Below the pieces are notes generated by a model. That model searched no databases and was not told where the DNA came from. It worked only from the letters and a program-made list of their open reading frames with translations. Both the position numbers and the translations under genes were made by a program. Shown here piece by piece: positions 7,034 to 45,351 of a stretch of DNA of 64,000 nt (the first letter of the stretch is position 1; every line of letters starts with the position of its first letter). The stretch spans positions 4,308,272 through 4,372,271 of the forward strand of contig CP073041.1 of assembly GCA_025370055.1 (NCBI GenBank), written 5' to 3'. The stretch comes from Woronichinia naegeliana WA131. GTDB taxonomy: Bacteria > Cyanobacteriota > Cyanobacteriia > Cyanobacteriales > Microcystaceae.

Positions 7034-7205
7034 TTAAAATTTTTCTAAATTTTTATTAATTATGCTTCAATTTGAAGATTTGCTTGTCAGTCGATATTTT
7101 TCATGATAGCGTACCTGTACAGTAGATGCTACTTTTACCTAATTCAATATCAAACGATTCCTTTAGAGGAATCACAATAGCTCAATCACTTGTCTGCTCT
7201 AAATT

Positions 7206-8015: not shown

Positions 8016-8060
8016 CGGGAGAGCTAGATTTTCCCTAAGGTTCTGTTAAAAGAATTGGGG

Positions 8061-8369
8061 TCAAATGCAACAAAGTTGCATTATCCCAAAAATACCCGGG
8101 TTCTCCGAAAGAAACTGTTCAAGCTCCTTTAGAGTTAAGCTTCCCAAACCTTCTGGTAAATCGGGTATGGCAAAAAATCCACCAGCACCACTACCAAGGT
8201 CACTTATATCACCTAGTTCTGGGGGCTTTTCCGCTTGTAGCCTTTCAATCTCTGTTTTAGGATCTTGCCGCAAATTGGCCAAAATGCTTGGGTTACTCCA
8301 AGCATTAGCAATTAGTCTAGCCCATTGTTCTTGTTCGTTCATATTTTTTTTAAGTGGGAAATGAAACAA
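8061..8369 (-). CDS. NHLP (nitrile-hydratase-leader-peptide)-type RiPP precursor peptide. The likely true start is the internal ATG giving MNEQEQWARLIANAW... (about 8342). The leader ends in a double glycine (SGAGG) and the predicted core is FFAIPDLPEGLGSLTLKELEQFLSENPGIFGIMQLCCI.
   Basis: The leader ARLIANAWSNPSILANLRQDPKTEIERL matches the conserved NHLP leader pattern (..AKAWEDPAFKQ.LL.NPKAAIE..), followed by a GG motif. It is divergent from the YcaO/dehydrogenase operon and directly upstream of the PhyH gene. The ORF-track start is a TTG. Confidence 0.65.
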   Translation of the reverse strand: MFHFPLKKNMNEQEQWARLIANAWSNPSILANLRQDPKTEIERLQAEKPPELGDISDLGSGAGGFFAIPDLPEGLGSLTLKELEQFLSENPGIFGIMQLCCI

Positions 8370-8483
8370 TTTATGCTCTCTGCAGCGTCTTATGGTATCA
8401 TTCTAACTGGGTTTCATGTCAAGTAAGTTTCGTACTGGGTATGAGGGGTTTAGAGAACATCGTCTTGTAAAGAAACATTACTT

Positions 8484-10324
8484 GTGGTGTGGAGTCACTA
8501 TGAAGAGCCAATATTGTGGAGGAAAATTATGCTAAGTAACACTAATCAAGATGCAAACAATAATTATGACGAAGCTTACAATTTTTTAGAACGATCAGAA
8601 ATAGACCCCGATCAACCAGACATTCGTTTCAGACTAGAGGATATACAAGGCAATATTCTTAAAAGTCACGGGAGAACTTATTCTATTTATGTTTTCTTAC
8701 ACTTTGACAACAGTCAACCAGAAGCTACTAAGAAATGGATTGGGGATTTTGCTGAAAAGTATGTTGTATCTGCCATTAGGCAACGAGAACAAACCCAAGA
8801 ACATAAAAAATTCCTTAAAACAAAGAAGGAAGCTTCGTCTTCAACCTTATTTGTTAATTTTTCTTTATCATTTAAAGGGTATGAAGCATTAGGATTAGAT
8901 GCTAAGACTAATTTCCGAAAACTTTATCAGCAAAAACTACAAGATAAAGAACGTTCTTTTTCTACACATCCTTTCGAGGAGGGAATGCTCGAAAACCTAG
9001 AGAGTCTCAAGGACAAGAAAAGAGATTGGGAGATTGAGTATCAACAAGTTGAGTCCAGTGTAATGAACAACGATATTCATGCTTTAATCTTACTGGCTGA
9101 TTGCGATATCGATAATTTATGTGAAAAAACACAACAAATATTAGATAATATTGAAGCGAACAACATTAGAATTATTAAGAAAGAAATTGGTTGGGTACGT
9201 AAGAACGATCAAGATCAGTGTATAGAACCATTTGGGTTTGCAGATAATATCAGTAATCCTTTATTTCTGAAATCAGATATTTACCAAGTAACAGATAAAG
9301 ACCAATGGGACCCAAGTGCTAACTTGCGCTTGGTGCTTAATGTCGATCCTTTTGGCAATCTCCAGAATAAGGGTTATAGCTATGGAAGTTTTTTAGTTTA
9401 TCGAAAGCTGGAACAAAATGTAGAGGGTTTCAATGAAAAAATCAAAGAGTTAGCTGGTAAGTTAGAAAATCTAGGAGCCGATTCCCATCCAAAAAAGAAA
9501 CAGAACAACTCGTTAAAGCTTATACTATGGGGCGTTTCCAAAATGGACGGCCTGTTATGATTTATAGTAGCCCAGATTCTCTAGAACAAAGTGGAGTAGA
9601 TTTAAATAATTTTAACTATGGAAAGGGAAATGATTTTAAAGAAACATCTCGATGGAAATGCCCATTTCACGCTCACATTAGGAAGATGAATTCGCGGGCA
9701 ATAAGTGATAATGTACATAGTGGTACTTATAAAGATAAACCAGATAACCAACGTCAGAGAAGAATTGTTCGGCGAGGAACAACCTACGGTTTACCCAAAG
9801 AAAATCAAACTTCACTCTTGTCACAAACAACGAAAGAAAACTTACGGCACTACAAAAGCCTCTCAGAAAAACTGGGAGTCAAAACAGAAGTGGGTAAGGA
9901 AGGATTGCTATTTTTTTGTTTCCAAAGTGATATTCACGCCCAATTTGAGAAGCTTCAAGACTACGCTAATGATAACAATTTTGGGACAAATCCATTCGGA
10001 AAACTAGGCGCAGATCCTATTTTGGGACAGCAAAAGACACTGTTAATTCAACAGGTGACAGATAGGATATTAAAAATACCGTTAATTCATCGGGTGACAA
10101 ATAGTATATTAAAGACACCGTTAATTCAATGGGGGAGAGAAAAATTGCCGCCAATGCTAAAAGAAGCGTTTGGCAAATGGCCAAGTCAGACATGGCCAAG
10201 AACGTGGGGAAATTCACAAGACCCAGTTAAGGATTTCGATTTTTTTGGGTATGTGACTCCTAGAGGAGGTGAATATTTCTTTACACCCAGTCTAAGTTTC
10301 CTGAAATCCCTAAAAGAAGAATGA
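8484..10324 (+). CDS. DyP-type haem peroxidase split over two overlapping ORFs (8484-9560 and 9527-10324), implying a frameshift near 9490-9530. The likely start is the ATG at 8529, preceded by GGAGG.
   Basis: ORF1 contains a GXXDG-type motif (EPFGFADNISNP, distal Asp). ORF2 contains FHAHIRKMNSR (candidate proximal His and distal Arg) and RRGTTYGLP. The two ORFs change frame around the A6GA3 run at 9491-9500, and the ORF2 frame is open upstream back to 9461. Confidence 0.5.
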
Positions 10325-12582
10325 GTCAGATAACTGCTTATCGTCCCAAATTGAAATCCTGCTTTCGTTGTGAAATTATTCCCTCGGAAGGGGTTTTGCT
10401 GCTATCTGAAAACCAATCTATTATTCTTCCTAATCCTGCCTTCATTAAGTTAGTTCAACTTCTCGATGGCCAGCACACCCTAGAAGAGATTATTAAGCAA
10501 CTTCAGCAAAAAATGCCTTCCGCAGAAGTTCTATCCCTGCTGATGCAAATTAAGAACTATACAGTTGATGCTACTCCTTCTATACCCTCAGAACAAGCTG
10601 CTTTTTGGGAAATGCTTGGCATTCAACCAGAAGTAGCTTACCAACGGTTGCAAACCACCTCCGTGACAGTAACAACCTTTGGCAATATTGATCCAACTTC
10701 CTTCGAGACCATGCTAACTTCCGTGGGGGTACAAGTCAGGGATGGAGAAGAGCGGTCAATCGTTCTCACTGATGATTACCTGCAACCAGGGCTAGAAGCT
10801 TTTAATCAGCAAGCTTTGTCCGAAAATCGTTCTTGGCTGTTAGTCAAACCTATGGGGACAGAGATTTGGTTAGGCCCCTTGTTTATTCCAGATAAAACAG
10901 GGTGTTGGGAGTGTCTCGGACAACGACTACAGGGTAAGCGAAAGGTCCAAACCTATCTCCAGCATAAACAAAAGACGAATCACCCTTTCTCTTCATCCTT
11001 AGCTGTTTTACCCTCTACTTACCAAACAGCCCTCAGTTTAGCCGCCACCGAAACTGTTAAATGGATAGTAAGTGAAGCAAATGAAAGTATTGAAGGTAAC
11101 ATCATTACCCTCAATACTTTAACTCTCGAAAAAAACAACCATCCCCTGATTCGTCGTCCTCAATGCCCAACTTGTGGAAATCCCAACTTGATGGCTCAAA
11201 AACAATCAATAATACCAGTTTTACAAAGTCGCCAAAAGAATTTCACCAGTGATGGCGGGCATCGCAGTATTGCACCAGAGGAAACTTTTAGGAGATTGCA
11301 ACCTTATATTAGTCCAATTACAGGAATAATAAGCCTTCTGGGACAACCTCAAGGTTGGGAACACCAGCAGCAATTCACGCCTGCTTACATTAGTCAGGGC
11401 ATTTTCTTAGAGTATAACCAAGACTTAGAATCTCTACGCCGCAGTCTGAATCGATGTGCTAGTGGTAAGGGAAAAAGTGATATCCAAGCCAGAGTTAGTG
11501 CCATTGGGGAGGCGATGGAGCATTATTCAGGAGTTTTTCATGGGGATGAATACCGCGTTCGAGACCGCCTGAAAAATCTCAGTAACCCAATTCATCCGAA
11601 CGCCTGTATGTTGTTTAGCGATCGCCAAATCCAAAATCGGCATCTAGAAACTTCCAACCCGTCTCGTCTCAACTGGATTCCCGAACCCTTTGATGAAGAA
11701 CAGCAAATTGATTGGAGTCTAGTTTGGTCTTTGACTGATAATGAGCCTCGATACCTTCCTACTGCTTATTGTTACTACGGCTATGCTCAACAGCATCACA
11801 TCAAGTTTACTAGGGCTGACTCCAATGGCTGTGCTGCGGGTAACACCATGGAAGAGGCGATTTTACAAGGCTTTATGGAGTTAGTCGAGCGGGATAGCGT
11901 AGCTTTGTGGTGGTACAACCGTTTGCGAAAACCAGCAGTGAATCTTGCCGATTTTAATGAACCATACTTCCAAGAATTGCTGAGATTCTATCAGCAACAC
12001 CACCGCGATCTCTGGGTATTGGATATTACCAGCGATTTTAACATTCCTACCTTTGCTGCCATTTCTCGACGAAATGACCAAGCTGTTGAAAATATTATTC
12101 TCGGTTTTGGAACCCATTTTGACCCACAAATTGCTATTCTTCGCGCCTTAACTGAACTCAATCAGTCACTCCCTGCTGTCTTGTCTAACAAGCCTGAACA
12201 CAGTCGTGCTTACCGAGATCATTATCCTGAAGCCCTAGAATGGTGGCAAACGGCAACTCTTGAAAATCAACCCTATTTAATCCCTGATGAAAGTACAACC
12301 TGTAAGGTTTCAGCAGACTATCATAACAACGGTTATGGTGACCTTTATACTGATGTAATGAGTTGTGTAAACCTGGCTCAATCCAAGGGATGGGAAACTC
12401 TAATTTTAGATCAGACTCGCCCTGATGTTGGATTGTCAGTTGTCAAAGTTATCGTCCCTGGGCTGCGACATTTTTGGCCTCGATTTGCCCCAGGACGGCT
12501 GTATGATATTCCCGTCCAAATGGGGTGGTTAACAACACCATTAACAGAGGAGCAATTAAATCCTCTACCTATTTTCTTTTAA
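10321..12582 (+). CDS. Fused E1-like/YcaO cyclodehydratase (PatD/TruD-like azoline synthetase) with an N-terminal RRE (PqqD-like) leader-binding domain
   Basis: 753 aa. N-terminal winged-helix RRE-like segment (LLLSENQSIILPNPAFIKLVQLLDGQHTLEEI). C-terminal YcaO hallmark (GCAAGNTMEEAILQGFMELVERDSVALWWYN) and proline-rich C-terminus. The start overlaps the upstream ORF by 4 nt. Confidence 0.8.
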   Translation: MSQITAYRPKLKSCFRCEIIPSEGVLLLSENQSIILPNPAFIKLVQLLDGQHTLEEIIKQLQQKMPSAEVLSLLMQIKNYTVDATPSIPSEQAAFWEMLGIQPEVAYQRLQTTSVTVTTFGNIDPTSFETMLTSVGVQVRDGEERSIVLTDDYLQPGLEAFNQQALSENRSWLLVKPMGTEIWLGPLFIPDKTGCWECLGQRLQGKRKVQTYLQHKQKTNHPFSSSLAVLPSTYQTALSLAATETVKWIVSEANESIEGNIITLNTLTLEKNNHPLIRRPQCPTCGNPNLMAQKQSIIPVLQSRQKNFTSDGGHRSIAPEETFRRLQPYISPITGIISLLGQPQGWEHQQQFTPAYISQGIFLEYNQDLESLRRSLNRCASGKGKSDIQARVSAIGEAMEHYSGVFHGDEYRVRDRLKNLSNPIHPNACMLFSDRQIQNRHLETSNPSRLNWIPEPFDEEQQIDWSLVWSLTDNEPRYLPTAYCYYGYAQQHHIKFTRADSNGCAAGNTMEEAILQGFMELVERDSVALWWYNRLRKPAVNLADFNEPYFQELLRFYQQHHRDLWVLDITSDFNIPTFAAISRRNDQAVENIILGFGTHFDPQIAILRALTELNQSLPAVLSNKPEHSRAYRDHYPEALEWWQTATLENQPYLIPDESTTCKVSADYHNNGYGDLYTDVMSCVNLAQSKGWETLILDQTRPDVGLSVVKVIVPGLRHFWPRFAPGRLYDIPVQMGWLTTPLTEEQLNPLPIFF

Positions 12583-12608
12583 GCGATTCGGCTACCTTGA
12601 ATTTTAAC

Positions 12609-13775
12609 ATGAGTGACTCATCAAGCAAGGAGCAGCATTTTGTTATCTCTACCTCAGAGAAAACTTGGGCTGAGATCGCTCCTTTTGGTACAAAACAAGT
12701 TGTCCCTTTTCCTCTAGAGTCGAACCAACTATATACGCTCTCACGTTTTGCCTACCTCCACAATCTTGACGGGAAAATGGTGCTGGAATCTCCCTTGGCT
12801 CATTGTCAAGTGATTCTGTATGATGAGCGATCGCTTGCCATTTTTCATGCTCTTTCTGCTCCTCAAACTCTGGCACAATTGGGTAATCAATTTTCAGATA
12901 TTCCCCAAGATATTATTGCAACCTTCCTAAGTTGGTTGCTAGGAGAGAAATTTTTAGCGGTTACTGATAAAGATGGAACGGTCAATGAGGAACCATCATT
13001 ACATCTGTGGGAACTTCACGACCTGTTGTTTCATGCCAGAAGTCGTTTAGGAAGGCATAATTATCCCTATGGGAAAAGCAATCTCCATTTAGGTAAAATC
13101 GAACCACTTCCTGCTGTGAAGTCGTCAAACTCATTTGCAACAATTACTCTATATCAGCCAAATATTGAAGCCTTGATGGATTGTGATATTCCCTTCACTC
13201 GTGTCATGGAACAAAGGCGATCGCAAAGGCAACAAGGTAAACAGCCAATTACTATTGAACAATTAGGTGAGTTTCTCTATCGTACTGCTCGTATTAGATC
13301 GCTCAAAATGACTGAATCTGTCGAGTATGAATTTAGCGATCGCCCCTATCCTAGTGGTGGTGCTTGTTATGAGTTGGAACTGTATTTGATAATCAATGCT
13401 TGTCAGGGAATAGAATCAGGACTCTACCATTACTGTCCCAAAGAACATTTTCTCTGTCAATTAAACGGTTACACGGGAGAAGTTTATAAACTTTCCTGTC
13501 AAGCAGTTACTGAATCAGGCTTACCTCAAGTCTTAATTATCCTAGCAGCCCGCTTTTCCAGAGTCGCTTGGAAATATCGCTCTCTTGCTTATTCCTTGAC
13601 ATTAAAACACGTCGGCGTTCTTTATCAAAGTATGTATCTAGTTGCAACAGCGATGGAGCTTGCCTCTTGCGCCATCGGAGGAGGAGATTCTGACCTGTTT
13701 GCCGAAGCAACTAAAACTGATTACTTGATTGAAACTTCCGTCGGTGAATTTATACTGGGTAGCCAAGCAGACTAG
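12609..13775 (+). CDS. SagB-type (McbC-like) FMN-dependent azoline dehydrogenase
   Basis: Nitroreductase-like motifs RRSQRQ and RPYPSGGACYELELYL. The ORF-track start at 12525 overlaps the YcaO gene; the ATG at 12609 (MSDSSSKEQHFV...) is the more plausible start. Confidence 0.75.
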   Translation: MSDSSSKEQHFVISTSEKTWAEIAPFGTKQVVPFPLESNQLYTLSRFAYLHNLDGKMVLESPLAHCQVILYDERSLAIFHALSAPQTLAQLGNQFSDIPQDIIATFLSWLLGEKFLAVTDKDGTVNEEPSLHLWELHDLLFHARSRLGRHNYPYGKSNLHLGKIEPLPAVKSSNSFATITLYQPNIEALMDCDIPFTRVMEQRRSQRQQGKQPITIEQLGEFLYRTARIRSLKMTESVEYEFSDRPYPSGGACYELELYLIINACQGIESGLYHYCPKEHFLCQLNGYTGEVYKLSCQAVTESGLPQVLIILAARFSRVAWKYRSLAYSLTLKHVGVLYQSMYLVATAMELASCAIGGGDSDLFAEATKTDYLIETSVGEFILGSQAD

Positions 13776-15921: not shown

Positions 15922-17916
15922 ATGAAAAAGTTAGTTCGTCCGTTTGCCCTTGGTTTAAGTATGATGGTTGGCTTCGGGGTCAACATTCCTGCTCTGAATG
16001 CAAAAACTCCATCTAAACCCAATCAGTCAGTAGCTAATCCTTGCGAAGAAGCTCAAAACGTGTGTGCTGCTGAATCCGTTCCACTTTATTACAATCGTTC
16101 AGCAGACGCAATTAAAACGATACTGGAAAAAATTGTTGGTGATGGTAAGACTGGCAAATTTGCGGGAACTTTTATCGGAGAAAATGGCACTGGCACTGGC
16201 GAAGCATCTGGTAATAACCATAATGTAATCGTCCTATATGGTACAGATGACAACCGAAAAAAACTCAAACGAATCATTGCAATTCTCGACCTTCCCCGTG
16301 AGCGCGTCAATATGGAGATGTGGGGAATACTAATCTCTAGTGACAATCCTCAGCAATTGGCTGAAGTCATGAATCGGGTTAACAAGGAAATTGATAAGAC
16401 TCAACAATTACTGCAAGAGACCTACAATCAAATTAAAGAATATTCCATCAATTATGCTCTTAAGGCAGAGAATAATCCTGATCTTAAAATAGAACCTGAT
16501 TTTAAGAATTTATTTACAGAGGTTCTTGGATATAAAACAGCATTTGATGAAGATTCTTCTTCTCTCTCTATGATAGATATTTTGCTAATCTTGTTAGCAA
16601 GAAATAAACCTAATATTGCATATAATAATGCAGCAAATGGTCTTTGTCAGATTTTCTTTAAAAAAGACGGCCAGCCTAAAGAAGATTTTCAACCCTATTT
16701 AGAGGCTTTAGCTAAAAATGAAAAAAAACGACCCTTTGAAAACTATATCCGTTTGGGTTTACATCAAGAGGATAAAGGATCAACCCCAGGGTGTAACAGT
16801 CTAAAAAATGCTGAGGATTTAGATCAAAGAAATTTTATTGCACGAAAAGCCGTTCTAAATTTTGCCTTACAATATTCTCGTCTCAAGAGAATACCAGCCG
16901 AAATTGATCCCGATGCTTTACAAGAATCTGCCGAAACATTGAACTCTGTTTTGGAACCTGTGGTTAATGCGCTTAACCGTGACATAGAAGATTTGTTCAT
17001 TCAACCGACTTTAGAAAGAATTCAACGCATCGTGAGCGAATATGATGATGTAAGCTATGCGGAAGTGGGCAAAACCAGTGTCGCAGGATTAAATGGTATT
17101 CATTCGGAAGTCTCTTCAACATCAGTCAGTACCTTTGATGAAACTGGCCCTTTAAGGCTTAGTCAATGGCTTGAGGATGCGGGCAAACTCAATAACAGTG
17201 TCTCAAGTTTATTACCAAAAGAGGTTGCGTTTGAAGGTAGTCCAATCCCTGTATCCTCTTTGATAAGTACGGTTGCTGCCCTGAGCGCGGATCACTCCCA
17301 ATGGCGAGGATTAACATCAGGGATTTCGATAACGATTACCCCTTCGGTGTTACGCAACAGCGAGTCGGCAGAACTGCAAATAGATTTTACCACTGGCCCA
17401 AAAGAGATCACTCAAGGAGAAGAGAGTAACAACGGACAAACGAAGCTACGTCCTTTATCCCGCATTGCCCAGAGTCATGTGAAAACAAGTGTTTATGTTA
17501 AAACCTTAGATTTATTTGCTCTTTCTACTTTCAATAATCAAACTACTGAAGATGGTGGACGAGGCTATATCCCTCTAATTGGCCCAATTTGGAAAGGATT
17601 TTTCAGTGGACTTCCAATTGTTGGCGATCTGTTCAGTTGGCAGAATGCACCCAACAATGTTCAGCATCAAAGTATTGCATTAGTTAACTCCTTTATTGTC
17701 CCTACTGCAATGGGATTAGCTCATTTATACAGCAACAGTAACAGTAACACAATTCCCTTTGAATATAAGTCTTCTGCCGTTGAAAGATATTTGGATTGTC
17801 TTAAGAAAAAGAATCAAGCAACTGTTGTTGATTCTCAGTGTTTTGTTACAAGCCCGCAACAACCATATCAATATCAGCAACTCCCACCTCAATATCAACC
17901 TGACTTTTCCCGTTAA
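15922..17916 (+). CDS. Divergent secretin-family outer-membrane protein (signal peptide, secretin-N-like module, C-terminal secretin motif). The last ~4 codons and the stop are supplied by the inserted IS.
   Basis: Signal peptide MKKLVRPFALGLSMMVGFGVNIPALNA. Secretin_N-like HNVIVLYGTDDNRKKLKRIIAILDLPRERVNMEMWGILISS. C-terminal IPLIGPIWKGFFSGLPIVGDLFS resembling the conserved secretin PxLGxIPxLGxLF motif. The reading frame continues across the IS as ...QYQQVPNTGVRP* at 21114+. Confidence 0.5.
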   Translation: MKKLVRPFALGLSMMVGFGVNIPALNAKTPSKPNQSVANPCEEAQNVCAAESVPLYYNRSADAIKTILEKIVGDGKTGKFAGTFIGENGTGTGEASGNNHNVIVLYGTDDNRKKLKRIIAILDLPRERVNMEMWGILISSDNPQQLAEVMNRVNKEIDKTQQLLQETYNQIKEYSINYALKAENNPDLKIEPDFKNLFTEVLGYKTAFDEDSSSLSMIDILLILLARNKPNIAYNNAANGLCQIFFKKDGQPKEDFQPYLEALAKNEKKRPFENYIRLGLHQEDKGSTPGCNSLKNAEDLDQRNFIARKAVLNFALQYSRLKRIPAEIDPDALQESAETLNSVLEPVVNALNRDIEDLFIQPTLERIQRIVSEYDDVSYAEVGKTSVAGLNGIHSEVSSTSVSTFDETGPLRLSQWLEDAGKLNNSVSSLLPKEVAFEGSPIPVSSLISTVAALSADHSQWRGLTSGISITITPSVLRNSESAELQIDFTTGPKEITQGEESNNGQTKLRPLSRIAQSHVKTSVYVKTLDLFALSTFNNQTTEDGGRGYIPLIGPIWKGFFSGLPIVGDLFSWQNAPNNVQHQSIALVNSFIVPTAMGLAHLYSNSNSNTIPFEYKSSAVERYLDCLKKKNQATVVDSQCFVTSPQQPYQYQQLPPQYQPDFSR

Positions 17917-20900
17917 GTGCGGATTGCAAGCTGCCAGCCTTGGCAAAGGTCATGCAACTTCAACCAACCGCGCCAAAGGACTTGGATACCGAGAGGAGTT
18001 TTACGACGATGTTCAAGATAACCACCAAGAAAAGCAACAGACTCGACAGCCCAAGCAACAGTCAAAATAGGGGGAAGTTTTTGAGAGGCGGCTGCTTTTA
18101 ACACCTGAAGTTGAAGAGGATTAAGAATTTCAATCGCGAGAGCATCGGGCTGGGTACGATGAAGATAAGTAACGTGTAAAAGTTCAACAGCAATGACACT
18201 TAAAAAACCCAAAAGAGTTTTCATTCCATCAGAGGCAAGTCGATAACGCTCACTCTGACAACCAGACTTAAGGACTTTATGAAATTCTTCAACCCGCCAT
18301 CGGTAGGTGTACCAACGAAGAATAGTGACAGCCATCTCAATAGTCTCAACAACTTCTGTAGTCAGAAGCATCCAAGATAAAGGAGTTTCGCCTTCGGGAC
18401 AATCGATTTCTGTCGCATAAACAGCATAGACATTCAACGGGTCACGATTATCAAAACGATAGGGAGTTCGTAGATTCTGACTTTTCCCGTTAAGTGCGGA
18501 TTGCAAGCTGCCAGCCTTGGCAAAGGTCATGCAACTTCAACCAACCGCGCCAAAGGACTTGGATACCGAGAGGAGTTTTACGACGATGTTCAAGATAACC
18601 ACCAAGAAAAGCAACAGACTCGACAGCCCAAGCAACAGTCAAAATAGGGGGAAGTTTTTGAGAGGCGGCTGCTTTTAACACCTGAAGTTGAAGAGGATTA
18701 AGAATTTCAATCGCGAGAGCATCGGGCTGGGTACGATGAAGATAAGTAACGTGTAAAAGTTCAACAGCAATGACACTTAAAAAACCCAAAAGAGTTTTCA
18801 TTCCATCAGAGGCAAGTCGATAACGCTCACTCTGACAACCAGACTTAAGGACTTTATGAAATTCTTCAACCCGCCATCGGTAGGTGTACCAACGAAGAAT
18901 AGTGACAGCCATCTCAATAGTCTCAACAACTTCTGTAGTCAGAAGCATCCAAGATAAAGGAGTTTCGCCTTCGGGACAATCGATTTCTGTCGCATAAACA
19001 GCATAGACATTCAACGGGTCACGATTATCAAAACGATAGGGAGTTCGTAGATTAACTGAGCAAAATCGGACGGCAAGCTTAACCTTCCGTGCTTTTCTTT
19101 TTCCTGTACTCGGAATCTCGATTTCTTGATGAAAACGAATCGGTTCTGATTCCAAATGTTGCCAAAGTCGTTCACTATTTTTGTCTAAACTACGATTATG
19201 AGACGCTCTGACCAGCACTCCTGTATGCTTGAGTTGACGCACTGAGTCAAAGACTTCTGAAACATCTCCTTCTCTGTCAAATACATGAATTACCCTCGTT
19301 GAACTTTCTACCTGTTTCTCACAGGTGTTTAGAGCCTCTACCCATTTGTAGGATTCTTTTTCCTCAAATGGTCTTTGACGAGCTGCTTTTCTTTGTTCTT
19401 TCTGTCTTTCTTTTTTCTGCTTCGCCGTTTCATCTGTTGGGGGCTTTTCTTTTACCTCCCTATTCCACAGTTTTTGCCATAATAAACCTAATACTTGTCC
19501 TTTTTCTGGCTCAATTGCTAAAGCACTATGCAGTATTAATCCATTCCCTCCTTTTCCAGTCGGCCCATACCCTTCCCTTTTTTCCTTGATATTGCGATAA
19601 TCTAAGAAGGTCGTATCTCCGACTGATAGCATTATCTTATATTCTTCTACGGCGGCAGTTGTCATTTCACAGTGCGGCTCTATTATCTTGACAAAGTCTG
19701 TTTTCGGATTCCCAAAAATTCATAGGCCCTCTTTAACTCGTTTCCTCCCTTAAACACTTCTGATAAGGCTTTTCCAAACCCCTCACTTAACTTTTTCCCA
19801 ATCGAGAAGGCACGATTGTTTAGCCTCTCGTCTCCCAATTCACAACTGGCAAAGTTTTTTGTCCACCATTCCAACATTTTTTGACCTGCCCTTTAAGATT
19901 TTCTCCATTTTACAGTCTCATACTCCCTTCATCCTTTGTTTTTGAAATTTGAACGATAAGCGGGATGATGGCTTCAGAATATTTTTTTCCTGTCAAGAGA
20001 ATCATTACTCAAACCCTTGCCAGATAAAGCCTCTAGAAGTTTGCATTGCTGGATTTTGGACTTAACGGGAAAAGTCAGTTCGTAGATTAACTGAGCAAAA
20101 TCGGACGGCAAGCTTAACCTTCCGTGCTTTTCTTTTTCCTGTACTCGGAATCTCGATTTCTTGATGAAAACGAATCGGTTCTGATTCCAAATGTTGCCAA
20201 AGTCGTTCACTATTTTTGTCTAAACTACGATTATGAGACGCTCTGACCAGCACTCCTGTATGCTTGAGTTGACGCACTGAGTCAAAGACTTCTGAAACAT
20301 CTCCTTCTCTGTCAAATACATGAATTACCCTCGTTGAACTTTCTACCTGTTTCTCACAGGTGTTTAGAGCCTCTACCCATTTGTAGGATTCTTTTTCCTC
20401 AAATGGTCTTTGACGAGCTGCTTTTCTTTGTTCTTTCTGTCTTTCTTTTTTCTGCTTCGCCGTTTCATCTGTTGGGGGCTTTTCTTTTACCTCCCTATTC
20501 CACAGTTTTTGCCATAATAAACCTAATACTTGTCCTTTTTCTGGCTCAATTGCTAAAGCACTATGCAGTATTAATCCATTCCCTCCTTTTCCAGTCGGCC
20601 CATACCCTTCCCTTTTTTCCTTGATATTGCGATAATCTAAGAAGGTCGTATCTCCGACTGATAGCATTATCTTATATTCTTCTACGGCGGCAGTTGTCAT
20701 TTCACAGTGCGGCTCTATTATCTTGACAAAGTCTGTTTTCGGATTCCCAAAAATTCATAGGCCCTCTTTAACTCGTTTCCTCCCTTAAACACTTCTGATA
20801 AGGCTTTTCCAAACCCCTCACTTAACTTTTTCCCAATCGAGAAGGCACGATTGTTTAGCCTCTCGTCTCCCAATTCACAACTGGCAAAGTTTTTTGTCCA

Positions 20901-35197: not shown

Positions 35198-36473
35198 GGC
35201 ACTGGTATCGTCTAGCTAGAAGCTATAAACGTTGCAATACAAGAGGTTCAACAAATCAGGCGAATTTGGAGTAAGTCCTCCCAAGTTAACCCTTTTTGAA
35301 TTATACCGAGAGCTACCGCAGGAACTTTTTTCGTCGTAAAATGGCTGCGAACAAAGTTATGAACCATCCAGAAAATATCTAGCACTCGCTGTAATCCCAC
35401 AACAGATTTAGCATAAGTATTTGTTCGACGACGAAAGGCGGCTAAATAGCGTCGTAGAGAACTATTAAATGCCTCAACGTGGTTGGCATGAACATCCTTG
35501 TCTTCTGGTTTTTCTGTTGTCTCAGGATGTTCAGTTTTCGGAGTTTCTACTTTCTCTAGTTTACCCTCAGAATCTCGACGTTTACTACTCTTATTTTTTA
35601 ATCTTACCACCATACCCTTCGGTAATACTTTGGTGGGACGACCTCGCTTCCCAGTCCTTAATACTTCGTGACAAATATTAAATAGCAGTTGACTATATCG
35701 CTTTTCTCCATCTGTAAATAACTGGAGAGATTCTGCACTCCTTTCAAATAATTCCGCTACCGTCATCATTGCTTCTAGAAATAATTTCTGCTCTTTTTTA
35801 CCACATTTTAAATGCCAAATAAAGCGGCTAGCCCTGTCCATGAGCACGATTGTCCACCCCTCAGAGGCACTTGCTTCTTTATTTTTTCCAACTTTTGTGT
35901 ATAGTTCATCCCCTTCTATTACTAATTTAACAAATTCATTCACTAAGGCGTATAAAAATAATGTCTCTTGTAATCCTGATAATTTCTTTTCCCAATTCAA
36001 TATTGTTGTTTTTGCGTAGCCGAATACTCGGGCTGCTGCATTTAATCCTATTCCTTCCATTCTGGCTTTTAATACTTTTACAATTTCACTTAATGGGGTT
36101 TCTAAGCCAGCGATTACGCTACCATAAGTCTCAGCAAAACAAGAACCACATTCTTGACAGATGAACATTTTACGTTCCCCGTTACCTTTCGTTTGGTAAT
36201 GAGAATGTATTTTTACTTTTTCACTATAGCAATGAGGGCAGTTTTTCTGAAATAAGGCTTCCTCTTTCTCTTGAGGTAAGCCAATATCACTTAGGAGGTC
36301 AATTGAGCTTTTATTCAATGTTGACATTGCTTTCCGTTTTCCCTTTCTTTAATATAATGACAATAATAATAGTATAACAAAAACGGGAATATGTCCAGTC
36401 GTAAGTTATTTTCTATTTTCTCAAACTCTTACACCATAACTTTTTCTAGCTTTGATCACACGATACCAGTACC
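35198..36473 (-). mobile_element. IS1-family insertion sequence (1276 bp), imperfect terminal IRs GG(C/T)ACTGGTATCGT..., 8-bp TSD GACAATTG (35190-35197 / 36474-36481)
   Basis: IRs and TSD read directly; a single-ORF IS1-type transposase lies inside. Confidence 0.8.
35248..36327 (-). CDS. IS1-family transposase (single-ORF type: N-terminal zinc finger plus InsB-like DDE domain)
   Basis: CPHCYSEK...CQECGSCF zinc finger; DELYTKVGKNKE...W...DR.SR...TDGEKRY... similar to IS1 InsB DEMW..VG.KK..WL....DR...TDGW.LY. Confidence 0.7.
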   Translation of the reverse strand: MSTLNKSSIDLLSDIGLPQEKEEALFQKNCPHCYSEKVKIHSHYQTKGNGERKMFICQECGSCFAETYGSVIAGLETPLSEIVKVLKARMEGIGLNAAARVFGYAKTTILNWEKKLSGLQETLFLYALVNEFVKLVIEGDELYTKVGKNKEASASEGWTIVLMDRASRFIWHLKCGKKEQKLFLEAMMTVAELFERSAESLQLFTDGEKRYSQLLFNICHEVLRTGKRGRPTKVLPKGMVVRLKNKSSKRRDSEGKLEKVETPKTEHPETTEKPEDKDVHANHVEAFNSSLRRYLAAFRRRTNTYAKSVVGLQRVLDIFWMVHNFVRSHFTTKKVPAVALGIIQKGLTWEDLLQIRLIC

Positions 36474-36789
36474 GACAATTGACAATGGACAATTATCAAC
36501 TATTCATTATCAACTATCAATTATTCACTAATCGGCGATCGCATTTTTTCTAACTGAGAAGAGGCGATCGCGTTTAGATTAAAGATCGTCTGTTGTGCAA
36601 TAAGCTATTAACAAAAACAATGATCTTTATTACTGCTTACCTCTCTCGCCGTATAAACTCCCTCAACAAACGCAAAGAACTATGGTCACGACACCCTTAA
36701 GCCCTCTCAAAATTTCAGGCTATCTTAACCTCGCTAAGGCCATTAAAAGCCTTTAATGATTTGATTATATTGTAAAGAGATAGACTGAT

Positions 36790-38401: not shown

Positions 38402-39964
38402 TTATTCTTCTATGGTTTTATCTCGAACCCCGCGCACAATCCGAGACAGTTCCGATTTTTCATCCACACTAATGCGAGTGGGCGAACCACTAATAATGCG
38501 CTCATAGTTACGGAAAGAGTCCTTGATATCGGGGCCATCATGACTAATGGTATATTCCCGAATGCCTTTATCATGCCAAGAGCCGCGCATTTTAAAGACG
38601 TTAATGGCACGAGACATTTCGCCCCGAATTTCTACGTATTGCAGCATGATAATAGTGTCGGTAATGGTTGAAATATGGGATTCCGTAATGGAATGGGCCC
38701 CCATAAATTGGTCGGTTGTGTTGGTGAAAAAGCCGGTAATTTCCTCCTGTTTAGCATAGCCTGTCACTCCAATGACAAACTGACGGAAGGCATTGTTGGT
38801 AACACCTCTGGCTAAAGCGGAGAGAGAATCAATGGCAATACGGGAAGGTTTAAACTCAGAAATTTCAGATTTGATCATTTGTAAGTGATCCTCTAGCCCG
38901 GCTGACTCAGGATAGGTACAGAGTAACTTTAATAATCCTTTTTGCTCCATTTCCTCAAAGTCAATGCCCCAGGAAGAGGCGTTACGCGATAATTGGGCTC
39001 GTGATTCTTCATAGGCAAATAAAATTGCCCGTTCTCCCTGACGACAACCTTCCTGTAAAAATTTGCTGACCAATAGGGTTTTGCCGGTTCCCGTTGCCCC
39101 CGTTGCTAAAATAATTGAATCTTTAAAAAAGCCGCCACCACACATTTCATCCAAGGTTTTGACACCAGAAGAAATGCGTGTGTTTGAGGATCGTTGAGTC
39201 AGACGCATAGCACCTAGGGGGAAAATGTTAATACCGTCATGGGTAATCGTAAAGGGATATTCCCCTTTCATGTGGGTTGTCCCCCGCAATTTTAAAATTT
39301 CAACGGTTCTTCTTCTGCGTTCGCCCTCTAAAACATTTCGCAAAATGACAACGTTATCTGATACAAATTCTTCCACTCCAAAACGGGCGATCGCGCCATA
39401 TTCTTCGATCCGTTCAGTGGTCATGATTGAGGTGACATTCAGTTGTTTGAGGCGGGCTACGAGGCGAAAAATTTCTCGTCTCACCACGGAAGCGGCATCA
39501 TATTGTTGAAAAACGGCTGTTACAGAGTCAATAGAGACTAATTTCGCCTTATATTTACGAATAGCGTACTGAATCCGTTCAATTAAGGCCGAAAGATCAA
39601 AACTGCCCACCACTTCTTGCCCTTCAGGATCGGGAGAGGCATCTAAAATAAATAATTTGCCATCATCAATTAATTTTTGCAAATCCCAACCAAAACTATA
39701 GGCATTTTGAATAATATCGGTGGGAGATTCTTCAAAGGTGATAAAAAGACCCGGATAGTCAAAATGATGAATGCCATGATAGAGAAATTGAACGGCGAGC
39801 AGTGTTTTTCCAGTCCCTGATGTGCCGCTAACTAAGGTTGTTCGTCCAATCGGCAGGCCACCATGAGTAATTTCATCAAATCCTTCAATAATTGTCCGAA
39901 TTTTCTGAACTCCTTTGCGAGGGGTTTCAGCCGGTTCAGTCGTATTTAAAATAGATTGGTTCAT
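38402..39964 (-). CDS. kaiC: Circadian clock protein KaiC
   Basis: 520 aa, duplicated RecA-like domains with Walker A GTSGTGKT and GATGTGKT; full-length KaiC organisation. Confidence 0.95.
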   Translation of the reverse strand: MNQSILNTTEPAETPRKGVQKIRTIIEGFDEITHGGLPIGRTTLVSGTSGTGKTLLAVQFLYHGIHHFDYPGLFITFEESPTDIIQNAYSFGWDLQKLIDDGKLFILDASPDPEGQEVVGSFDLSALIERIQYAIRKYKAKLVSIDSVTAVFQQYDAASVVRREIFRLVARLKQLNVTSIMTTERIEEYGAIARFGVEEFVSDNVVILRNVLEGERRRRTVEILKLRGTTHMKGEYPFTITHDGINIFPLGAMRLTQRSSNTRISSGVKTLDEMCGGGFFKDSIILATGATGTGKTLLVSKFLQEGCRQGERAILFAYEESRAQLSRNASSWGIDFEEMEQKGLLKLLCTYPESAGLEDHLQMIKSEISEFKPSRIAIDSLSALARGVTNNAFRQFVIGVTGYAKQEEITGFFTNTTDQFMGAHSITESHISTITDTIIMLQYVEIRGEMSRAINVFKMRGSWHDKGIREYTISHDGPDIKDSFRNYERIISGSPTRISVDEKSELSRIVRGVRDKTIEE

Positions 39965-40186: not shown

Positions 40187-40501
40187 CTAGAGTTCATTTT
40201 CTCGTTCACGAATTTCATCGTAAAGGAGATCTAAGCCAATGAGGACTTTTTCTCTATCTGAGAGATCGCCAATAATTTTACGAACGGGAGGGGGTAAGAC
40301 TTTCGCTAAGGTGGGGGTCGCTAAAATTTTATCTTCCTCTGCCAGTTGGGGATTTTTGAGTACATCGATAACTTTCAGGGCATAAACCCCTTTAAATTCC
40401 TGTTCTAAAATTGTCTTTAAGGTTTTTAAGGCTCGAACTGAGTTAGGGGTATTCCCAGCGACATAGAGTTTGAGAACATAAGTTTTTTTGAAATTACTCA
40501 T
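40187..40501 (-). CDS. kaiB: Circadian clock protein KaiB
   Basis: 104 aa; [14 protein letters not shown]...[21 protein letters not shown] is the KaiB thioredoxin-like signature; immediately upstream of kaiC. Confidence 0.95.
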
Positions 40502-40634
40502 TGTTAATGATCCTGAGGTTTTCGCTAGCCGCTAAAAATAAAGGATAAGAGTCTAAGTATAAAGGTGAGCAAGGAATAGGTTTAGGATAACGTAAATTAG
40601 TCCGTTTGATAGAAAACATCAAAGGGAATATCTT
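40502..40634 (-). promoter_or_regulatory. Residual native kaiBC upstream region (~133 bp) between the kaiB start and the IS end
   Basis: Location only: in cyanobacteria kaiBC is transcribed from a promoter upstream of kaiB. Here the IS terminus lies 134 bp upstream of the kaiB ATG. Confidence 0.3.
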
Positions 40635-42038
40635 CCCTGGGAGGGTGCGACCTTTAGTTGATAAAAGCTGTTGTAATCAGGGTTCTACAGGGAACCCATA
40701 TTGATCAAGTTTTGCCCAAAATTGACTCCATCGTTCCTTGGTCAATACCAAAGCTCGTAGGCTCAAAATAATTCCTGCTCCTTTTTCCTTCCATCGCATC
40801 CCTGAACAACATAATCGTTGTTTGACCAACGTCTTACAAGCTGCTTCCGTAACACCTGAACCAATCGGATACTTTTTCTCTAAGTATTCAGCATAATCCA
40901 TTTGATGCTGATGATTCTCGTAATAAGTAATCGCCGCTTGTAGTTTCTCGGTAAGATTCTTAGAATGACTTTTTTCTTCTTTGACTTCTTTCATCAGATT
41001 TAGCAGTTCTCCTGCTTTTCCTTTTTCATGCTTGAGTTCTCGACAATTTTCAGTCAACCATTCTTTTTGTTTTGACACTGTATTCGGATGCAACGCTTCT
41101 GCCAAGGCACCTAAGTAACCAGAGGCATGATAGAAATCTAATATCTGTTCTTCCGTTTGCTTTTCTAAAAACTTCCAATTTGATTCTGCCCCGTCTGCTA
41201 TCCCGACCAATGTTGCCTCTGGATAACGTTTTTTCGCTCGCTCAATTTCTCTTTCTAATCTTTCTAGAAAACTCTTTTTTCCATACTCTGGTGCCGCACC
41301 TAGATAGATTGTATGTTGACGTTCTCCCTCACTATCGTATAGGGAAACGGTTCCCACCATTGCTTCACGGTAGCCATCCTCACACATCAGCATACAGGTT
41401 CCATCTAATCCTATTCCCACTGTTGCAATTTGGCTATCCTCCTTGGGCGGGGCATAACTCCACGCTTCTTCTTTTGCCTGTACCACACTTCCTACTGCTT
41501 CACTCAATCTTTGGATATAGGATAGCGCTACTTTTCTACCATGATTTTCTAATAAATCATTTTTCACCTCTTTGCCTGCCATCCCTGACATTTTTGAGGA
41601 TACCTGTTTTGCCAATAATGGCGTTGATGTTATGATTATCCTTGCTTCTCTTTCTAAGGGGCAATACGTTTTTCCTCCTACTGAACGCTGATATACATGA
41701 CGATTCACTATAACCTCACCATAAGGTGTTTGATATTCTTTCGGTTGCTCTCCCTTACTCTTCCAGATTTCTTCACCGATTTTTAAGGGTGAACCATCTG
41801 TATCTAAATATTTCAAGGCTTCTTTGCTGGCGATGCAACCTACTTCGTTTAAGCCTTTTTGAATATTTATTTCTGTATCCAACATTGAACGACTGAGTTC
41901 TAATGTTAGTTCTATTTTTATCTTTGAACCCTCTACATTAATTAGTTTTGCTGTCATCATTGTTTCCTCTTTGTCACTTTTCATCTCATGTTAACACTTT
42001 TCTTTTCCTTCATCAACTAAAAGTCGCACCCCCCTGGG
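40635..42038 (-). mobile_element. Insertion sequence (~1404 bp) encoding a UPF0236/ISKra4-like transposase; imperfect terminal IRs ~27 bp C(T/A)GGG(A/G)GGGTGCGAC(C/T)TTTAGTTGAT; inserted at the extreme 3' end of kaiA
   Basis: Inverted repeats at 40635-40662 and 42012-42038 read directly; one long transposase ORF inside. Confidence 0.7.
40677..41984 (-). CDS. Transposase, ISKra4/ISLre2-like (UPF0236) family (435 aa)
   Basis: Size and acidic-residue context (LDGTCMLMCEDG; GIADGAESNW; DFYHASGYL); the family assignment is tentative. Confidence 0.5.
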   Translation of the reverse strand: MKSDKEETMMTAKLINVEGSKIKIELTLELSRSMLDTEINIQKGLNEVGCIASKEALKYLDTDGSPLKIGEEIWKSKGEQPKEYQTPYGEVIVNRHVYQRSVGGKTYCPLEREARIIITSTPLLAKQVSSKMSGMAGKEVKNDLLENHGRKVALSYIQRLSEAVGSVVQAKEEAWSYAPPKEDSQIATVGIGLDGTCMLMCEDGYREAMVGTVSLYDSEGERQHTIYLGAAPEYGKKSFLERLEREIERAKKRYPEATLVGIADGAESNWKFLEKQTEEQILDFYHASGYLGALAEALHPNTVSKQKEWLTENCRELKHEKGKAGELLNLMKEVKEEKSHSKNLTEKLQAAITYYENHQHQMDYAEYLEKKYPIGSGVTEAACKTLVKQRLCCSGMRWKEKGAGIILSLRALVLTKERWSQFWAKLDQYGFPVEP

Positions 42039-42938
42039 AATAGAGCGTCGATACATTTCACCTAAATGCGCCAAAATATCAATCAGTGCTAAACGATAGT
42101 CTAATAAAATTTCTTCGCTGCGTCCTTCCAGTTTTAGGTGTTGAGAAAACTCATCCATGAGGTTAATATGAATTTCCAAAATTTGGGAAACCGAAATATC
42201 GGCAAAGAAAGCACTATTCACAAATTGATCAATCTCTTGGTTAATATCAACACTTTGGTTGAAATAGGTCAAGATAATTTCACGATATTCTAAGGCAAGC
42301 TGTTCTAGAAATTCTTGTTTCTCAGCCGGCTCTAGATTGCGATAAAAGCTTTTGGGGTTGCGCTTGTAATACACACCTAAATATCCCAATCTTTCTTTTA
42401 GCTTATCCGCCAAGCGACGTTGTTGTAGGAGCAAGAAACTTTGTTGAGAGTCTTGAGGATCACGTTTTTGAGTACTAGCATTTGGAGGGGGGATGGTGCA
42501 GCTAGGGCCAAGATGTAAATAATGGGCGATCGCCCGATCAATGACTGTCGGGATAGTTTGCCATTCTGATTCGGGTAAATGGATTTCGGCATTGTGGTAA
42601 ATGACCGTCGGCGTTTCCTGAGGGGCAGATGTCTCGCGTTGAGATTCGAGGATGATTATTGGCAGGAGGCAGCCTTGCTCGTAGAGTTGGTTAAAAAAGG
42701 GTAAGGCGGGACTATCTCGTAAGACGATCAGACAATCAATATGCTCTGTATGACTACCAATAAACTCGATAAATTCATTAACAGAATAGACATAGGTCAG
42801 CCGATAGCGATCGCTCTTTAACATCTGAGAAAGTTGCTGGGCGATCACCTCCGTTACAAAGAGGCAAAGAGAAAGAGAAGACTGCAAAGCGTTCTCGACA
42901 GGGTAACAGGGAAGGGTGTGAGGAGTAGAACACCCCAT
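41991..42938 (-). CDS. kaiA: Circadian clock protein KaiA. The 3'-terminal ~15 codons are encoded by the IS terminal repeat, and the N-terminal extent is uncertain.
   Basis: C-terminal domain LGYLGVYYKRNPKSFYRNL...FFADISVSQILEIHINLMDEFSQHLKLEGRSEEILLDYRLALIDILAHLGEMYRRSIPR is the KaiA dimerisation/KaiC-binding domain. The tail GVRLLVDEGKEKC* is read from the IS IR (ccaggggggtgcgac...). Confidence 0.85.
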   Translation of the reverse strand: MGCSTPHTLPCYPVENALQSSLSLCLFVTEVIAQQLSQMLKSDRYRLTYVYSVNEFIEFIGSHTEHIDCLIVLRDSPALPFFNQLYEQGCLLPIIILESQRETSAPQETPTVIYHNAEIHLPESEWQTIPTVIDRAIAHYLHLGPSCTIPPPNASTQKRDPQDSQQSFLLLQQRRLADKLKERLGYLGVYYKRNPKSFYRNLEPAEKQEFLEQLALEYREIILTYFNQSVDINQEIDQFVNSAFFADISVSQILEIHINLMDEFSQHLKLEGRSEEILLDYRLALIDILAHLGEMYRRSIPRGVRLLVDEGKEKC

Positions 42939-42989: not shown

Positions 42990-43990
42990 GCAGTCAGGAG
43001 TAGGAAAATCTAAAGAAAAGGTGAAAAAAGGTCAAAGTTAGGTTGCTAACGGTTGCCGAGGATGGGGATTCAGCCCGCGATCGCCGCTTGACGATGGCTT
43101 TGAGCCTGATTGACTGACAAAAGTTATGCAGAAAAGTACTGATAAGAGTGGATAGTGAATTCGAGACGATGTAGTCGCTGACGATGTTGTGGGCGTGAAG
43201 CCATAGAGGGTTCGGAGTCAAAATTAGAAGAGAAACGGACTTGATGAATGAGATTCCAGGCATTGAGAACAGCCGCCTTAATCCAATCACAGCCAATCCG
43301 AAAATAACTGTTGACGCGAAACCAATGAGTATCGACCCAGCGACGATGCCCTCCATCAACGACAGCAAGACCTTGAGAGGTGGCAAAAAGTGTAGCCACA
43401 GCCATGATAAAACTTTGAACTTTGAACTTTGAACTCGCCATCTATTGTGTACTGAATCTCTACCCAAACTCCATCTACGAGAATCATCTTGGGAATTCGG
43501 GTTAAGGGAACCTGTCTTCTGCTTTCTATTTGTTTTTGGACATTAAGAGTAATCTGGTTCACCGCACTTACCGATAGCACTTTTCCTAGTATTAAATATA
43601 AAGCCTCCTGCAAATCTCGTAAGGATAGCCCCATCACATAGAGAACACACATCCAATCCAATAAATTTCCCAGACTTCGCTGATATCTTTCTAAAATCTG
43701 CCATTCTCTTTCTTTATTTCCCTCTCTTAATTTGGGGACAGCTAAATCACTTATCTGTCCATATTGAGTGTTTACTCCACGAAGATAGTACCCAGAACGA
43801 TACGGTTTTTTCTCTTTTCCCTTGAGAAATTCTGTCACTTCTTACTTCAAGGCACTTTCTAAAACCGTTTTGACCGTATCCACCACTCCACCACTTCTGT
43901 CTTTAACTTTGAGTTTAAGGCTTCGTTTAGTTGAGGATGAAAACCTTGCTGTCTCACACGCAGGATTTGTTTTTCTTGCTCGGCTATACT
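42990..43990 (-). pseudogene. Decayed IS256-family (mutator-type) transposase remnant, fragmented over at least three frames
   Basis: Fragments KPYRSGYYLRGVNTQYGQISDLAVPKLREG...ILVDGVWVEI (43356-43838), FIMAVATLFATSQGLAVVDGGHRRW (43124-43441) and an upstream N-terminal piece; no intact ORF. Confidence 0.6.
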
Positions 43991-44866: not shown

Positions 44867-45085
44867 ATGACGGAACTACTTGAACAAGATATTTCAAAAA
44901 TCAGAACTTTATCCTCTGATCAACAAGAGACTCTAGCGACTATCATTCTAGAAGAAATCGAAGAAGAAAAGCAATGGGATCAATCCTTTACTCGTTCACC
45001 TGATTTATTAGCCAAACTTGCCGCAGAAGCGATGACTGAATACCGACAAGGAAAAACGAAAGAACTCGATCCAGAAACTCTGTGA
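44867..45085 (+). CDS. Antitoxin of a RelE/ParE-type TA pair (72 aa)
   Basis: 4-nt overlap with the toxin gene; paralogous to 45515-45739. Confidence 0.55.
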   Translation: MTELLEQDISKIRTLSSDQQETLATIILEEIEEEKQWDQSFTRSPDLLAKLAAEAMTEYRQGKTKELDPETL

Positions 45086-45351
45086 AATCCCAAACAACAA
45101 TTCAGTTTCGTAAACAATTTTCTGCTCTCCCTAAACAAATTCAAGAACAGACCCGCAAAGCCTATCGGCAATTTCAAGATGATTCCAGTCATCCTAGTTT
45201 ACGGTTCAAAAAAATCCATTCTCAACTACCTATTTATTCTGCTCGAATTAACAAAGATTATCGAGTAGTTGGTCAGTTAGAACAGGATACAGTAATCTGG
45301 TTTTGGATTGGTTCCCATGCTGAATATGACTTGCTTTTGAATCAGATTTAA
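45082..45351 (+). CDS. RelE/ParE-family toxin (89 aa)
   Basis: C-terminal INKDYRVVGQLEQDTVIWFWIGSHAEYDLL matches the RelE/ParE core (..YRL.Y......V....IG.H..Y). Confidence 0.6.
   Translation: MKSQTTIQFRKQFSALPKQIQEQTRKAYRQFQDDSSHPSLRFKKIHSQLPIYSARINKDYRVVGQLEQDTVIWFWIGSHAEYDLLLNQI

Follow-up and report, generated by a model that had tools for sequence, protein, structure and literature searches.

An ISKra4-family insertion sequence in codon 303 of kaiA separates kaiA from kaiBC in Woronichinia naegeliana WA131

One of the closest described counterparts of the locus discussed here, the circadian clock genes kaiA, kaiB and kaiC of the cyanobacterium Woronichinia naegeliana WA131, is that of Synechococcus elongatus PCC 7942, in which kaiA likewise lies directly upstream of kaiBC and the spacer is of about the same length, 90-95 bp. 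The S. elongatus kaiBC promoter carries an RpaA~P footprint from -58 to -36, and a reporter that starts at -75 is rhythmic (PMC12916501). A truncated form of this promoter, D4 (Kutsuna et al. 2005, as cited in PMC7205874), keeps the RpaA site and suffices for feedback regulation; it is stronger than the full promoter, whose upstream regulatory sequence overlaps the open reading frame (ORF) of kaiA (PMC7205874). In WA131, an insertion sequence (IS) of the ISKra4 family has moved very recently into codon 303 of kaiA, and 1.4 kb now stand between kaiA and kaiBC. The stretch analysed, called the window in what follows, comprises 64,000 nt of WA131 contig CP073041.1, and all coordinates given below are window positions.

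Variation in kaiA also occurs elsewhere in cyanobacteria. Prochlorococcus has no kaiA, and the short KaiA of Anabaena (102 residues; PDB 1R5Q) is, like the WA131 protein, an example of natural variation at KaiA ends. The changes in Anabaena and Prochlorococcus are lineage-wide losses of a domain or of the gene, whereas that of WA131 is private to the strain and consists of an IS-made swap of the last 12 residues. In this respect WA131 behaves like other IS-rich genomes of bloom-forming cyanobacteria, such as those of Microcystis, in which recent IS insertions into or beside functional genes are frequent; the title of Dreher et al. (2023; cited in PMC12568284) presents WA131 with "30% of its genome in transposons". 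As for the element, the inverted repeats of its superfamily are 18-39 bp long and end in C, and the direct repeats measure 8-9 bp (Guerillot et al. 2014, PMC3942029). Searches of the literature on IS insertions in kai loci and on kaiB1C1 transcription units returned nothing specific, and no earlier report of the WA131 kaiA insertion was found.

On the minus strand of the window, the genes follow one another in the order kaiA, IS transposase, kaiB and kaiC. The ORF now read as kaiA (42938..41991) encodes 315 residues and contains both Pfam KaiA domains. The kaiB gene (40187..40501, minus strand) encodes 104 residues with matches to NF006798 and TIGR02654, and kaiC (38402..39964, minus strand) encodes 520 residues that score 1028 bits against TIGR02655; the equivalog scores of both proteins are far above the cut-offs. 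KaiC has the same sequence as UXE58676.1 and as its counterparts on five of the seven IS-free contigs L001-L007 introduced below, and KaiB is identical in six of these seven, which bears out the view, taken in a preliminary description made from the sequence alone, that kaiB and kaiC are intact.

The element measures 1389 bp (40643..42031, minus strand, co-oriented with kaiA-kaiB-kaiC), limits that are set by its inverted repeats being flanked directly by an 8-bp repeat. The two inverted repeats, each of 26 bp, occupy 40643..40668 on the side of kaiB (GGGTGCGACCTTTAGTTGATAAAAGC) and 42006..42031 on the side of kaiA; they are complementary at 23 of 26 positions (88%) and have ends of the form GGG.../...CCC, with a terminal C. 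The first 20 nt of the inverted repeat are found at two sites only in the window, where chance would provide none. Directly outside both inverted repeats lies the exact 8-bp direct repeat CCCTGGGA, and its two copies (40635..40642 and 42032..42039), which constitute the target-site duplication, were both matched to empty sites.

Codon 303 of kaiA is broken behind its first base, and residues 1-302 are native. This native part of the gene (codons 1-302 and the one base of codon 303 before the break; 42032..42938, minus strand) is 99.97-100% identical to three IS-free contigs (L100, L101 and L104). From there on, translation of the ORF gives 13 residues, G303-C315 (GVRLLVDEGKEKC), and a TAA stop that are all supplied by the IS (41991..42031, minus strand), and the fused protein ends ...EMYRRSIPRGVRLLVDEGKEKC*. 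The displaced 3' end of kaiA was located by in-silico excision and alignment to empty sites at 40597..40634 (minus strand): it holds the rest of codon 303 up to D314 (EDIPFDVFYQTD) together with its TAA, and after the insertion it stands outside the KaiA reading frame. Behind it follows the native kaiA-kaiB spacer, complete with 95 bp (40502..40596, minus strand) and 100% identical to that of L001-L007. The fused protein, with the TTG start chosen by NCBI, is deposited as UXE58678.1 on the 7,867,615-bp contig of WA131 and is annotated plainly as 'circadian clock protein KaiA'; comparative studies that take this ordinary annotation at face value would therefore inherit the chimeric C-terminus.

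In-silico removal of the IS and of one copy of the direct repeat yields a KaiA of 314 residues that ends ...SIPREDIPFDVFYQTD and whose reading closes as ...EMYRRSIPREDIPFDVFYQTD*, with 95 bp between its stop codon and the kaiB ATG. Used as a protein query, the reconstruction retrieved a 314-residue KaiA (P0001) at 99% identity, recorded on 42 contigs. Seven contigs that encode P0001 (L001-L007) show kaiA, 95 bp, kaiB and kaiC without the IS, and across the join they reproduce the two flanks of the window, identical and overlapping by exactly 8 bp. When compared by BLAST, IS-free contigs split into two matches ending at window positions 40642 and 42032, and this break with its 8-bp overlap is shown by 13 contigs, which come from ENA, JGI, Logan and two NCBI metagenome-assembled genomes (MAGs). 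The reconstructed protein is, moreover, identical at every residue to a natural one (P0124), encoded on the IS-free contigs L099-L104. One of them, L100 (NCBI MAG GCA_044345695.1), has 100% identity over 4292 bp on the kaiB side, and on the kaiA side a single mismatch over 3327 bp, that is, one single-nucleotide polymorphism in 7.6 kb besides the IS. These empty sites and the near-identity of L100 make the insertion real, precisely bounded and very recent: a multi-copy ISKra4-family IS has moved very recently into kaiA codon 303 in the WA131 lineage.

The preliminary description had placed an ISKra4-like IS of about 1.4 kb between kaiB and kaiA, had let it begin in the last codons of kaiA and had proposed that its terminal inverted repeat furnishes a new KaiA C-terminus and that it parts kaiA from kaiBC. 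All of this holds, as judged from the 1389-bp element and its 229-bit match to NF033572, the break in codon 303 with its 8-bp duplication and empty sites, the IS-encoded residues from G303 onward, and the distance of 1.4 kb. Because IS-free empty sites exist, the inverted-repeat-like sequence is indeed foreign and not a native part of kaiA.

Of the populations sampled, that of WA131 alone has the insertion. The native tail is present in every KaiA cluster member listed that reaches the C-terminus, except that of WA131 (about 180 contigs in all), and an exact match to the kaiA-IS junction was sought in JGI metagenome contigs and not found. The IS-bearing haplotype occurs only in the WA131 assembly, and near-identical IS-free haplotypes come from other samples. 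As far as the locus itself goes, it is a routine polymorphism caused by IS insertion, private to the strain, in a genome that is extremely rich in ISs.

The element is an ISKra4-family IS (p-MULT 4), an assignment made at the level of the family, with its subgroups ISKra4, ISMich2 and ISAzba1. Its transposase ORF (40677..41984, minus strand) reads 435 residues at its longest and 426 in the NCBI call, which starts at 41957 and is preceded by a Shine-Dalgarno-like GAGGAA. Against the NCBIfam model NF033572 (ISKra4), whose cut-off is 205 bits, the protein scores its 229 bits over profile positions 11-420 of 422, and NCBI names identical copies 'ISKra4 family transposase'. The 426-residue sequence corresponds to UXE64523.1, UXE64554.1, UXE64574.1 and UXE64576.1, meaning at least four identical copies in the WA131 genome, alongside which there are several shortened ones. 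The length of the inverted repeats, the terminal C, the 8-bp direct repeat, the single transposase ORF and the many copies are all as described for ISKra4-family elements, whereas the targeting of sites upstream of promoters, known for part of the family, is not demonstrable for the window element (PMC3942029).

Other copies of the IS are seen in metagenomes. In JGI metagenome contigs the IS end adjoins at least nine different flanking sequences, and full-length copies with about 99% identity to the window copy occupy other sites (contigs L089 and L098). A sister element with 94% amino acid identity is also 1389 bp long and makes an 8-bp duplication, ATTGTCGA. A look-up of transposase P0177 gave essentially one insertion site that recurs across samples, and a look-up of the WA131 transposase P0157 for further insertion sites gave no record. 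The copies at L089:952-2341 and L098:1690-3079, full-length as they are, have no target duplication, for which reason both contigs were discarded from the target-site analysis. Contigs L094 and L098 have one flank in common and differ in the other, and the pattern of these three contigs suggests either that short reads were assembled chimerically across the repeat or that copies of the IS have recombined.

Both KaiA domains are intact and the loss is limited to the tail, in that the native 12 residues (EDIPFDVFYQTD) are replaced by the 13 encoded by the IS. The N-terminal pseudo-receiver domain (Pfam KaiA_N, PF21714) is matched at residues 22-145 with E = 3.8e-40, the KaiA C-terminal domain (PF07688) at residues 182-302 with E = 4.4e-63, and this second match ends at R302. 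In alignments to the S. elongatus KaiA structures 1R8J, 4G86 and 5N8Y (E ~1e-70), the S. elongatus protein, fully functional with its 284 residues, runs to native E303 and then ends one residue further. The fused KaiA therefore retains all residues aligned to S. elongatus positions 3-282, with a glycine in place of E283 and the foreign tail in place of T284. AlphaFold2 monomer models of the two proteins, native and fused, agree in their helices and strands, and in both the last 14-15 residues are modelled as coil with pLDDT values of about 40-55. KaiA stimulates the autophosphorylation of KaiC by binding its C-terminal A-loop, and what the models predict in this regard is that the KaiA fold is retained. 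As the tails are of low confidence in both models, the models are uninformative about tail contacts; the tail looks like a flexible peptide in these predictions.

This tail is a further point in which Woronichinia departs from S. elongatus, whose KaiA lacks it and whose kaiA-kaiB spacer cannot be aligned to that of Woronichinia. In 117 of the 131 close homologues compared it counts exactly 12 residues and follows the pattern [EG]-D-[ILV]-[PL]-[FYL]-[DE]-[LVI]-[LFY]-x-x-x-D; the other 14 have tails of different length, shorter or missing in nine of them. An alignment of orthologues, proposed earlier as the means of defining the native C-terminus, showed that the orthologues end in EDIPFDVFYQTD-type tails and not in the IS-encoded one. 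Across 80 genomes, the long form is found in Synechocystis, Snowella, Microcystis, Crocosphaera, Pleurocapsales and Spirulina, and a short ..IPRE[LST] end like that of S. elongatus in members of other orders, namely Coleofasciculus, several Oscillatoria-like and other filamentous cyanobacteria. The motif shared by the KaiA tails of Chroococcales, Pleurocapsales and Spirulina is ED[IL]P[FY][DE][LV][LF]xxxD; the KaiA of Synechocystis salina carries the tail EDIPFDVYYQTD, which Synechocystis sp. PCC 6803 presumably shares. A literature search on a C-terminal extension of KaiA found nothing specific.

The conserved tail is the most interesting by-product of this analysis, as the case points to a conserved piece of KaiA that is missing from S. 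elongatus and disrupted naturally in Woronichinia and in a Microcystis MAG. Tentatively, and with the odds against it, the 12 residues might be an unrecognised functional motif absent from S. elongatus, such as a docking or autoinhibitory peptide, and WA131 a natural tail-replacement mutant. If the tail were such a motif, WA131 would combine its replacement with a natural truncation of the region upstream of kaiBC, and the clock would be altered in period, amplitude or output.

The Microcystis case is found in the Microcystis aeruginosa W13-11 MAG (L034, JAADBR010000112.1), where an independent non-coding insertion of 527 bp (contig positions 4839-5365) sits in the same kaiA tail codons. It follows ...GATTTAT, KaiA ends there as ...EDIPYDLSQMSG*, and kaiB lies 583 bp away instead of 56 bp. 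No target duplication, ORF, inverted repeats or Rfam match were found for this 527-bp insert, and its having neither a duplication nor inverted repeats recalls a non-autonomous element of the IS200/IS605 type.

On the other side of the element, the native DNA left between the IS and the kaiB ATG amounts to 141 bp, made up of the 95-bp spacer and 46 bp of former kaiA, namely its last 12 codons and stop (40642..40597). That only a short native stretch remains upstream of kaiB had been recognised from the start, with a length of 133 bp, to which the 8-bp duplication has to be added. A candidate -10 hexamer, TATACT, lies at 40561..40556, 54 nt before the kaiB ATG; should this hexamer be the -10 element, the junction with the IS would fall at about -94 from the transcription start. 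Set beside the D4 construct of S. elongatus, the WA131 insertion would be the natural equivalent of a kaiBC promoter cut about 141 bp before the kaiB start. By analogy, the core kaiBC promoter is probably preserved, and upstream modulatory sequence, if there is any, now stands 1.4 kb off. Footprinting of the spacer in 13 genomes did not extend this comparison, as the sequences past the kaiA stop are not alignable across genera and no conserved promoter element could be called. Should both haplotypes co-occur in samples for which metatranscriptomes are available, they would offer a natural experiment on the upstream sequence that kaiBC needs.

Transcription might also reach kaiBC from kaiA. The first ATG in the transposase ORF follows the new kaiA stop at a distance of 6 nt, and a terminator scan of the kai strand detected only weak terminator-like hairpins. 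With the transposase and the kai genes in one orientation, transcripts of kaiA may therefore extend across the IS as far as kaiBC. A separate observation concerns the target site itself, which is overlapped by a 16-nt palindrome, AGGGAAGATATTCCCT, at 40623-40638, inside the kaiA coding sequence. This palindrome was flagged as a weak hairpin and is followed by TTGATGTTTT.

Taken together, the IS transposed into kaiA codon 303 and made the 8-bp target duplication, its transposase gene landed directly behind kaiA in the same orientation, and everything upstream of -141, counted from the kaiB start codon, moved 1.4 kb further from kaiBC. Such IS polymorphisms are many in this genome, for which a transposon content of about 30% is reported. 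The clock would keep running on a KaiA with its core kept, on unchanged KaiB and KaiC, on a full spacer and on some 90 bp upstream of a plausible transcription start that the IS left untouched. Given these retained parts, and given that the truncated promoter of S. elongatus is rhythmic, the clock probably still runs in WA131. Mild or neutral consequences are accordingly rated as the likeliest (probability about 0.6), with nil to modest change in the behaviour of KaiA or in the level of kaiBC and without loss of the oscillator.

Several observations weigh against such a benign outcome, and most of them would favour a crippled clock instead, that is, a hypomorphic or damped, hourglass-like strain that might represent a first step towards the kaiA loss of the Prochlorococcus type; the cause would be either the missing tail or the parting of kaiBC from promoter elements within kaiA or from kaiA read-through. 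One group concerns the tail, in which D304, P306, F/Y307, D/E308 and D314 are strongly conserved among the 131 close homologues. In 45 genomes the tail has a pN/pS (nonsynonymous over synonymous polymorphism) of 0.29/0.71 = 0.41, to be compared with 0.09/0.81 = 0.11 for the 28 codons before it; by these figures the tail is constrained, less so than the last KaiA helix, and purifying selection on it implies a function that is lost in WA131. Another group concerns transcription. A sigma-70 consensus scan of the kai strand recognised no promoter in the retained 141 bp, an RpaA motif (TAAA-N7-TTAA) sought by eye in the same 141 bp gave no clear match, and no transcription start is identifiable there from the sequence. 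The spacer measures only 27-60 bp in many relatives, which implies that in those species the kaiBC promoter elements are inside kaiA or kaiABC are co-transcribed; if the same logic holds in WA131, the IS displaces or interrupts promoter elements of kaiBC. Furthermore, the event is so recent that unchanged KaiB and KaiC are silent on selection since it took place, and WA131 is a metagenome-derived assembly, which therefore does not give the frequency of the allele in its population. A clock-impaired strain could persist in a bloom, since a kaiA-null S. elongatus is viable with a damped rhythm (PMC7205874). Against a crippled clock, however, stand the retention of every residue aligned to S. elongatus positions 3-282, the identical predicted fold, the natural occurrence of KaiA variants with short, missing or disrupted tails, and the completeness of the kaiA-kaiB spacer, together with the finding that cutting off the upstream part that overlaps kaiA raises the activity of the S. 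elongatus kaiBC promoter (PMC7205874). A crippled clock is, on balance, an unlikely outcome that still deserves to be taken seriously.

A different effect on kaiBC would follow if the IS had been directed to a promoter. Thirteen elements of the ISKra4 group, whose near-perfect inverted repeats show a complementarity of 83-100%, are reported to insert 13-17 bp upstream of sigma-A promoters, as defined by a -35 box at this distance in more than 20% of their sites (Guerillot et al. 2014, PMC3942029). In WA131, a kaiBC promoter beginning in the last kaiA codons would then have attracted the IS and be intact, and the dosage of kaiBC would be changed by read-through from kaiA and the transposase gene or by the loss of upstream negative elements, possibly to the benefit of the strain. 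The 88% complementarity of the window repeats lies within the published range, the hexamers TTGATG and TAATTT, 17 nt apart (40622..40594), appear when the sequence is read from the IS to kaiB, the transposase has the direction of the kai genes with no strong terminator predicted on that strand, and in S. elongatus D4 is stronger than the full promoter. But TTGATG begins 20 nt from the end of the repeat and not 13-17, and the hexamer pair shares no more than 7 of the 12 positions with the consensus. The window IS and the sister element together offered 16 independent flanks, and a weak -35 (at least 7 of 12) at 13-17 nt was seen in three of them, with a small sample and a lenient threshold; one copy of the sister element lies within the coding sequence of tnpB; and the presence of the allele in one assembly only gives no sign of a selective sweep. 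Promoter targeting is attractive but unsupported, and a rewiring of kaiBC by this route appears improbable. Least probable by far is an assembly artefact, in which a repeat-induced misjoin would have brought an IS copy into the kaiA-kaiB interval. WA131 carries the label of a MAG, and L089 and L098, with their missing target duplications, indicate that assemblies around this IS can be chimeric; but a misjoin would not duplicate, perfectly and over 8 bp, the very sequence of the empty sites, both flanks are collinear with, and 99.97-100% identical to, an IS-free contig, and the sister element likewise makes 8-bp duplications.

The surroundings of the kai genes contain further mobile elements, since the window also holds transposase sequences of the IS4 family, an IS1-like element and the IS256 family. 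An IS256-family transposase remnant at 43356-43838, just upstream of kaiA, occurs in the IS-free contigs L003, L099 and L100 as well, and therefore predates the ISKra4 insertion and is shared within the species. A small toxin-antitoxin-like gene pair is found at 44867-45351, some 2 kb upstream of kaiA, one member of which is called as a ParE-like toxin (PF24732) on the same three IS-free contigs. On the far side of kaiC, an IS1-like ORF spans 35248-36327, and homology to the IS-free contigs L001, L002 and L004 ends at about 36483-36491; the rest of these contigs, with DUF4384 and TPR/CHAT genes, was not found in the window. This break, next to ictB, is a second structural difference, probably produced by another IS-associated rearrangement. 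Two transposase ORFs of the IS4 family, 391 and 205 residues long, adjoin or overlap each other at 17913-19665 and look like a disrupted or nested IS4 copy. Finally, a minus-strand ORF of 2068 residues (827-7033) and a plus-strand run of genes (8484-13775), the last of which encodes a SagB-family peptide dehydrogenase (12525-13775), may together form a biosynthetic cluster of the RiPP (ribosomally synthesised and post-translationally modified peptide) type at 827-13775.

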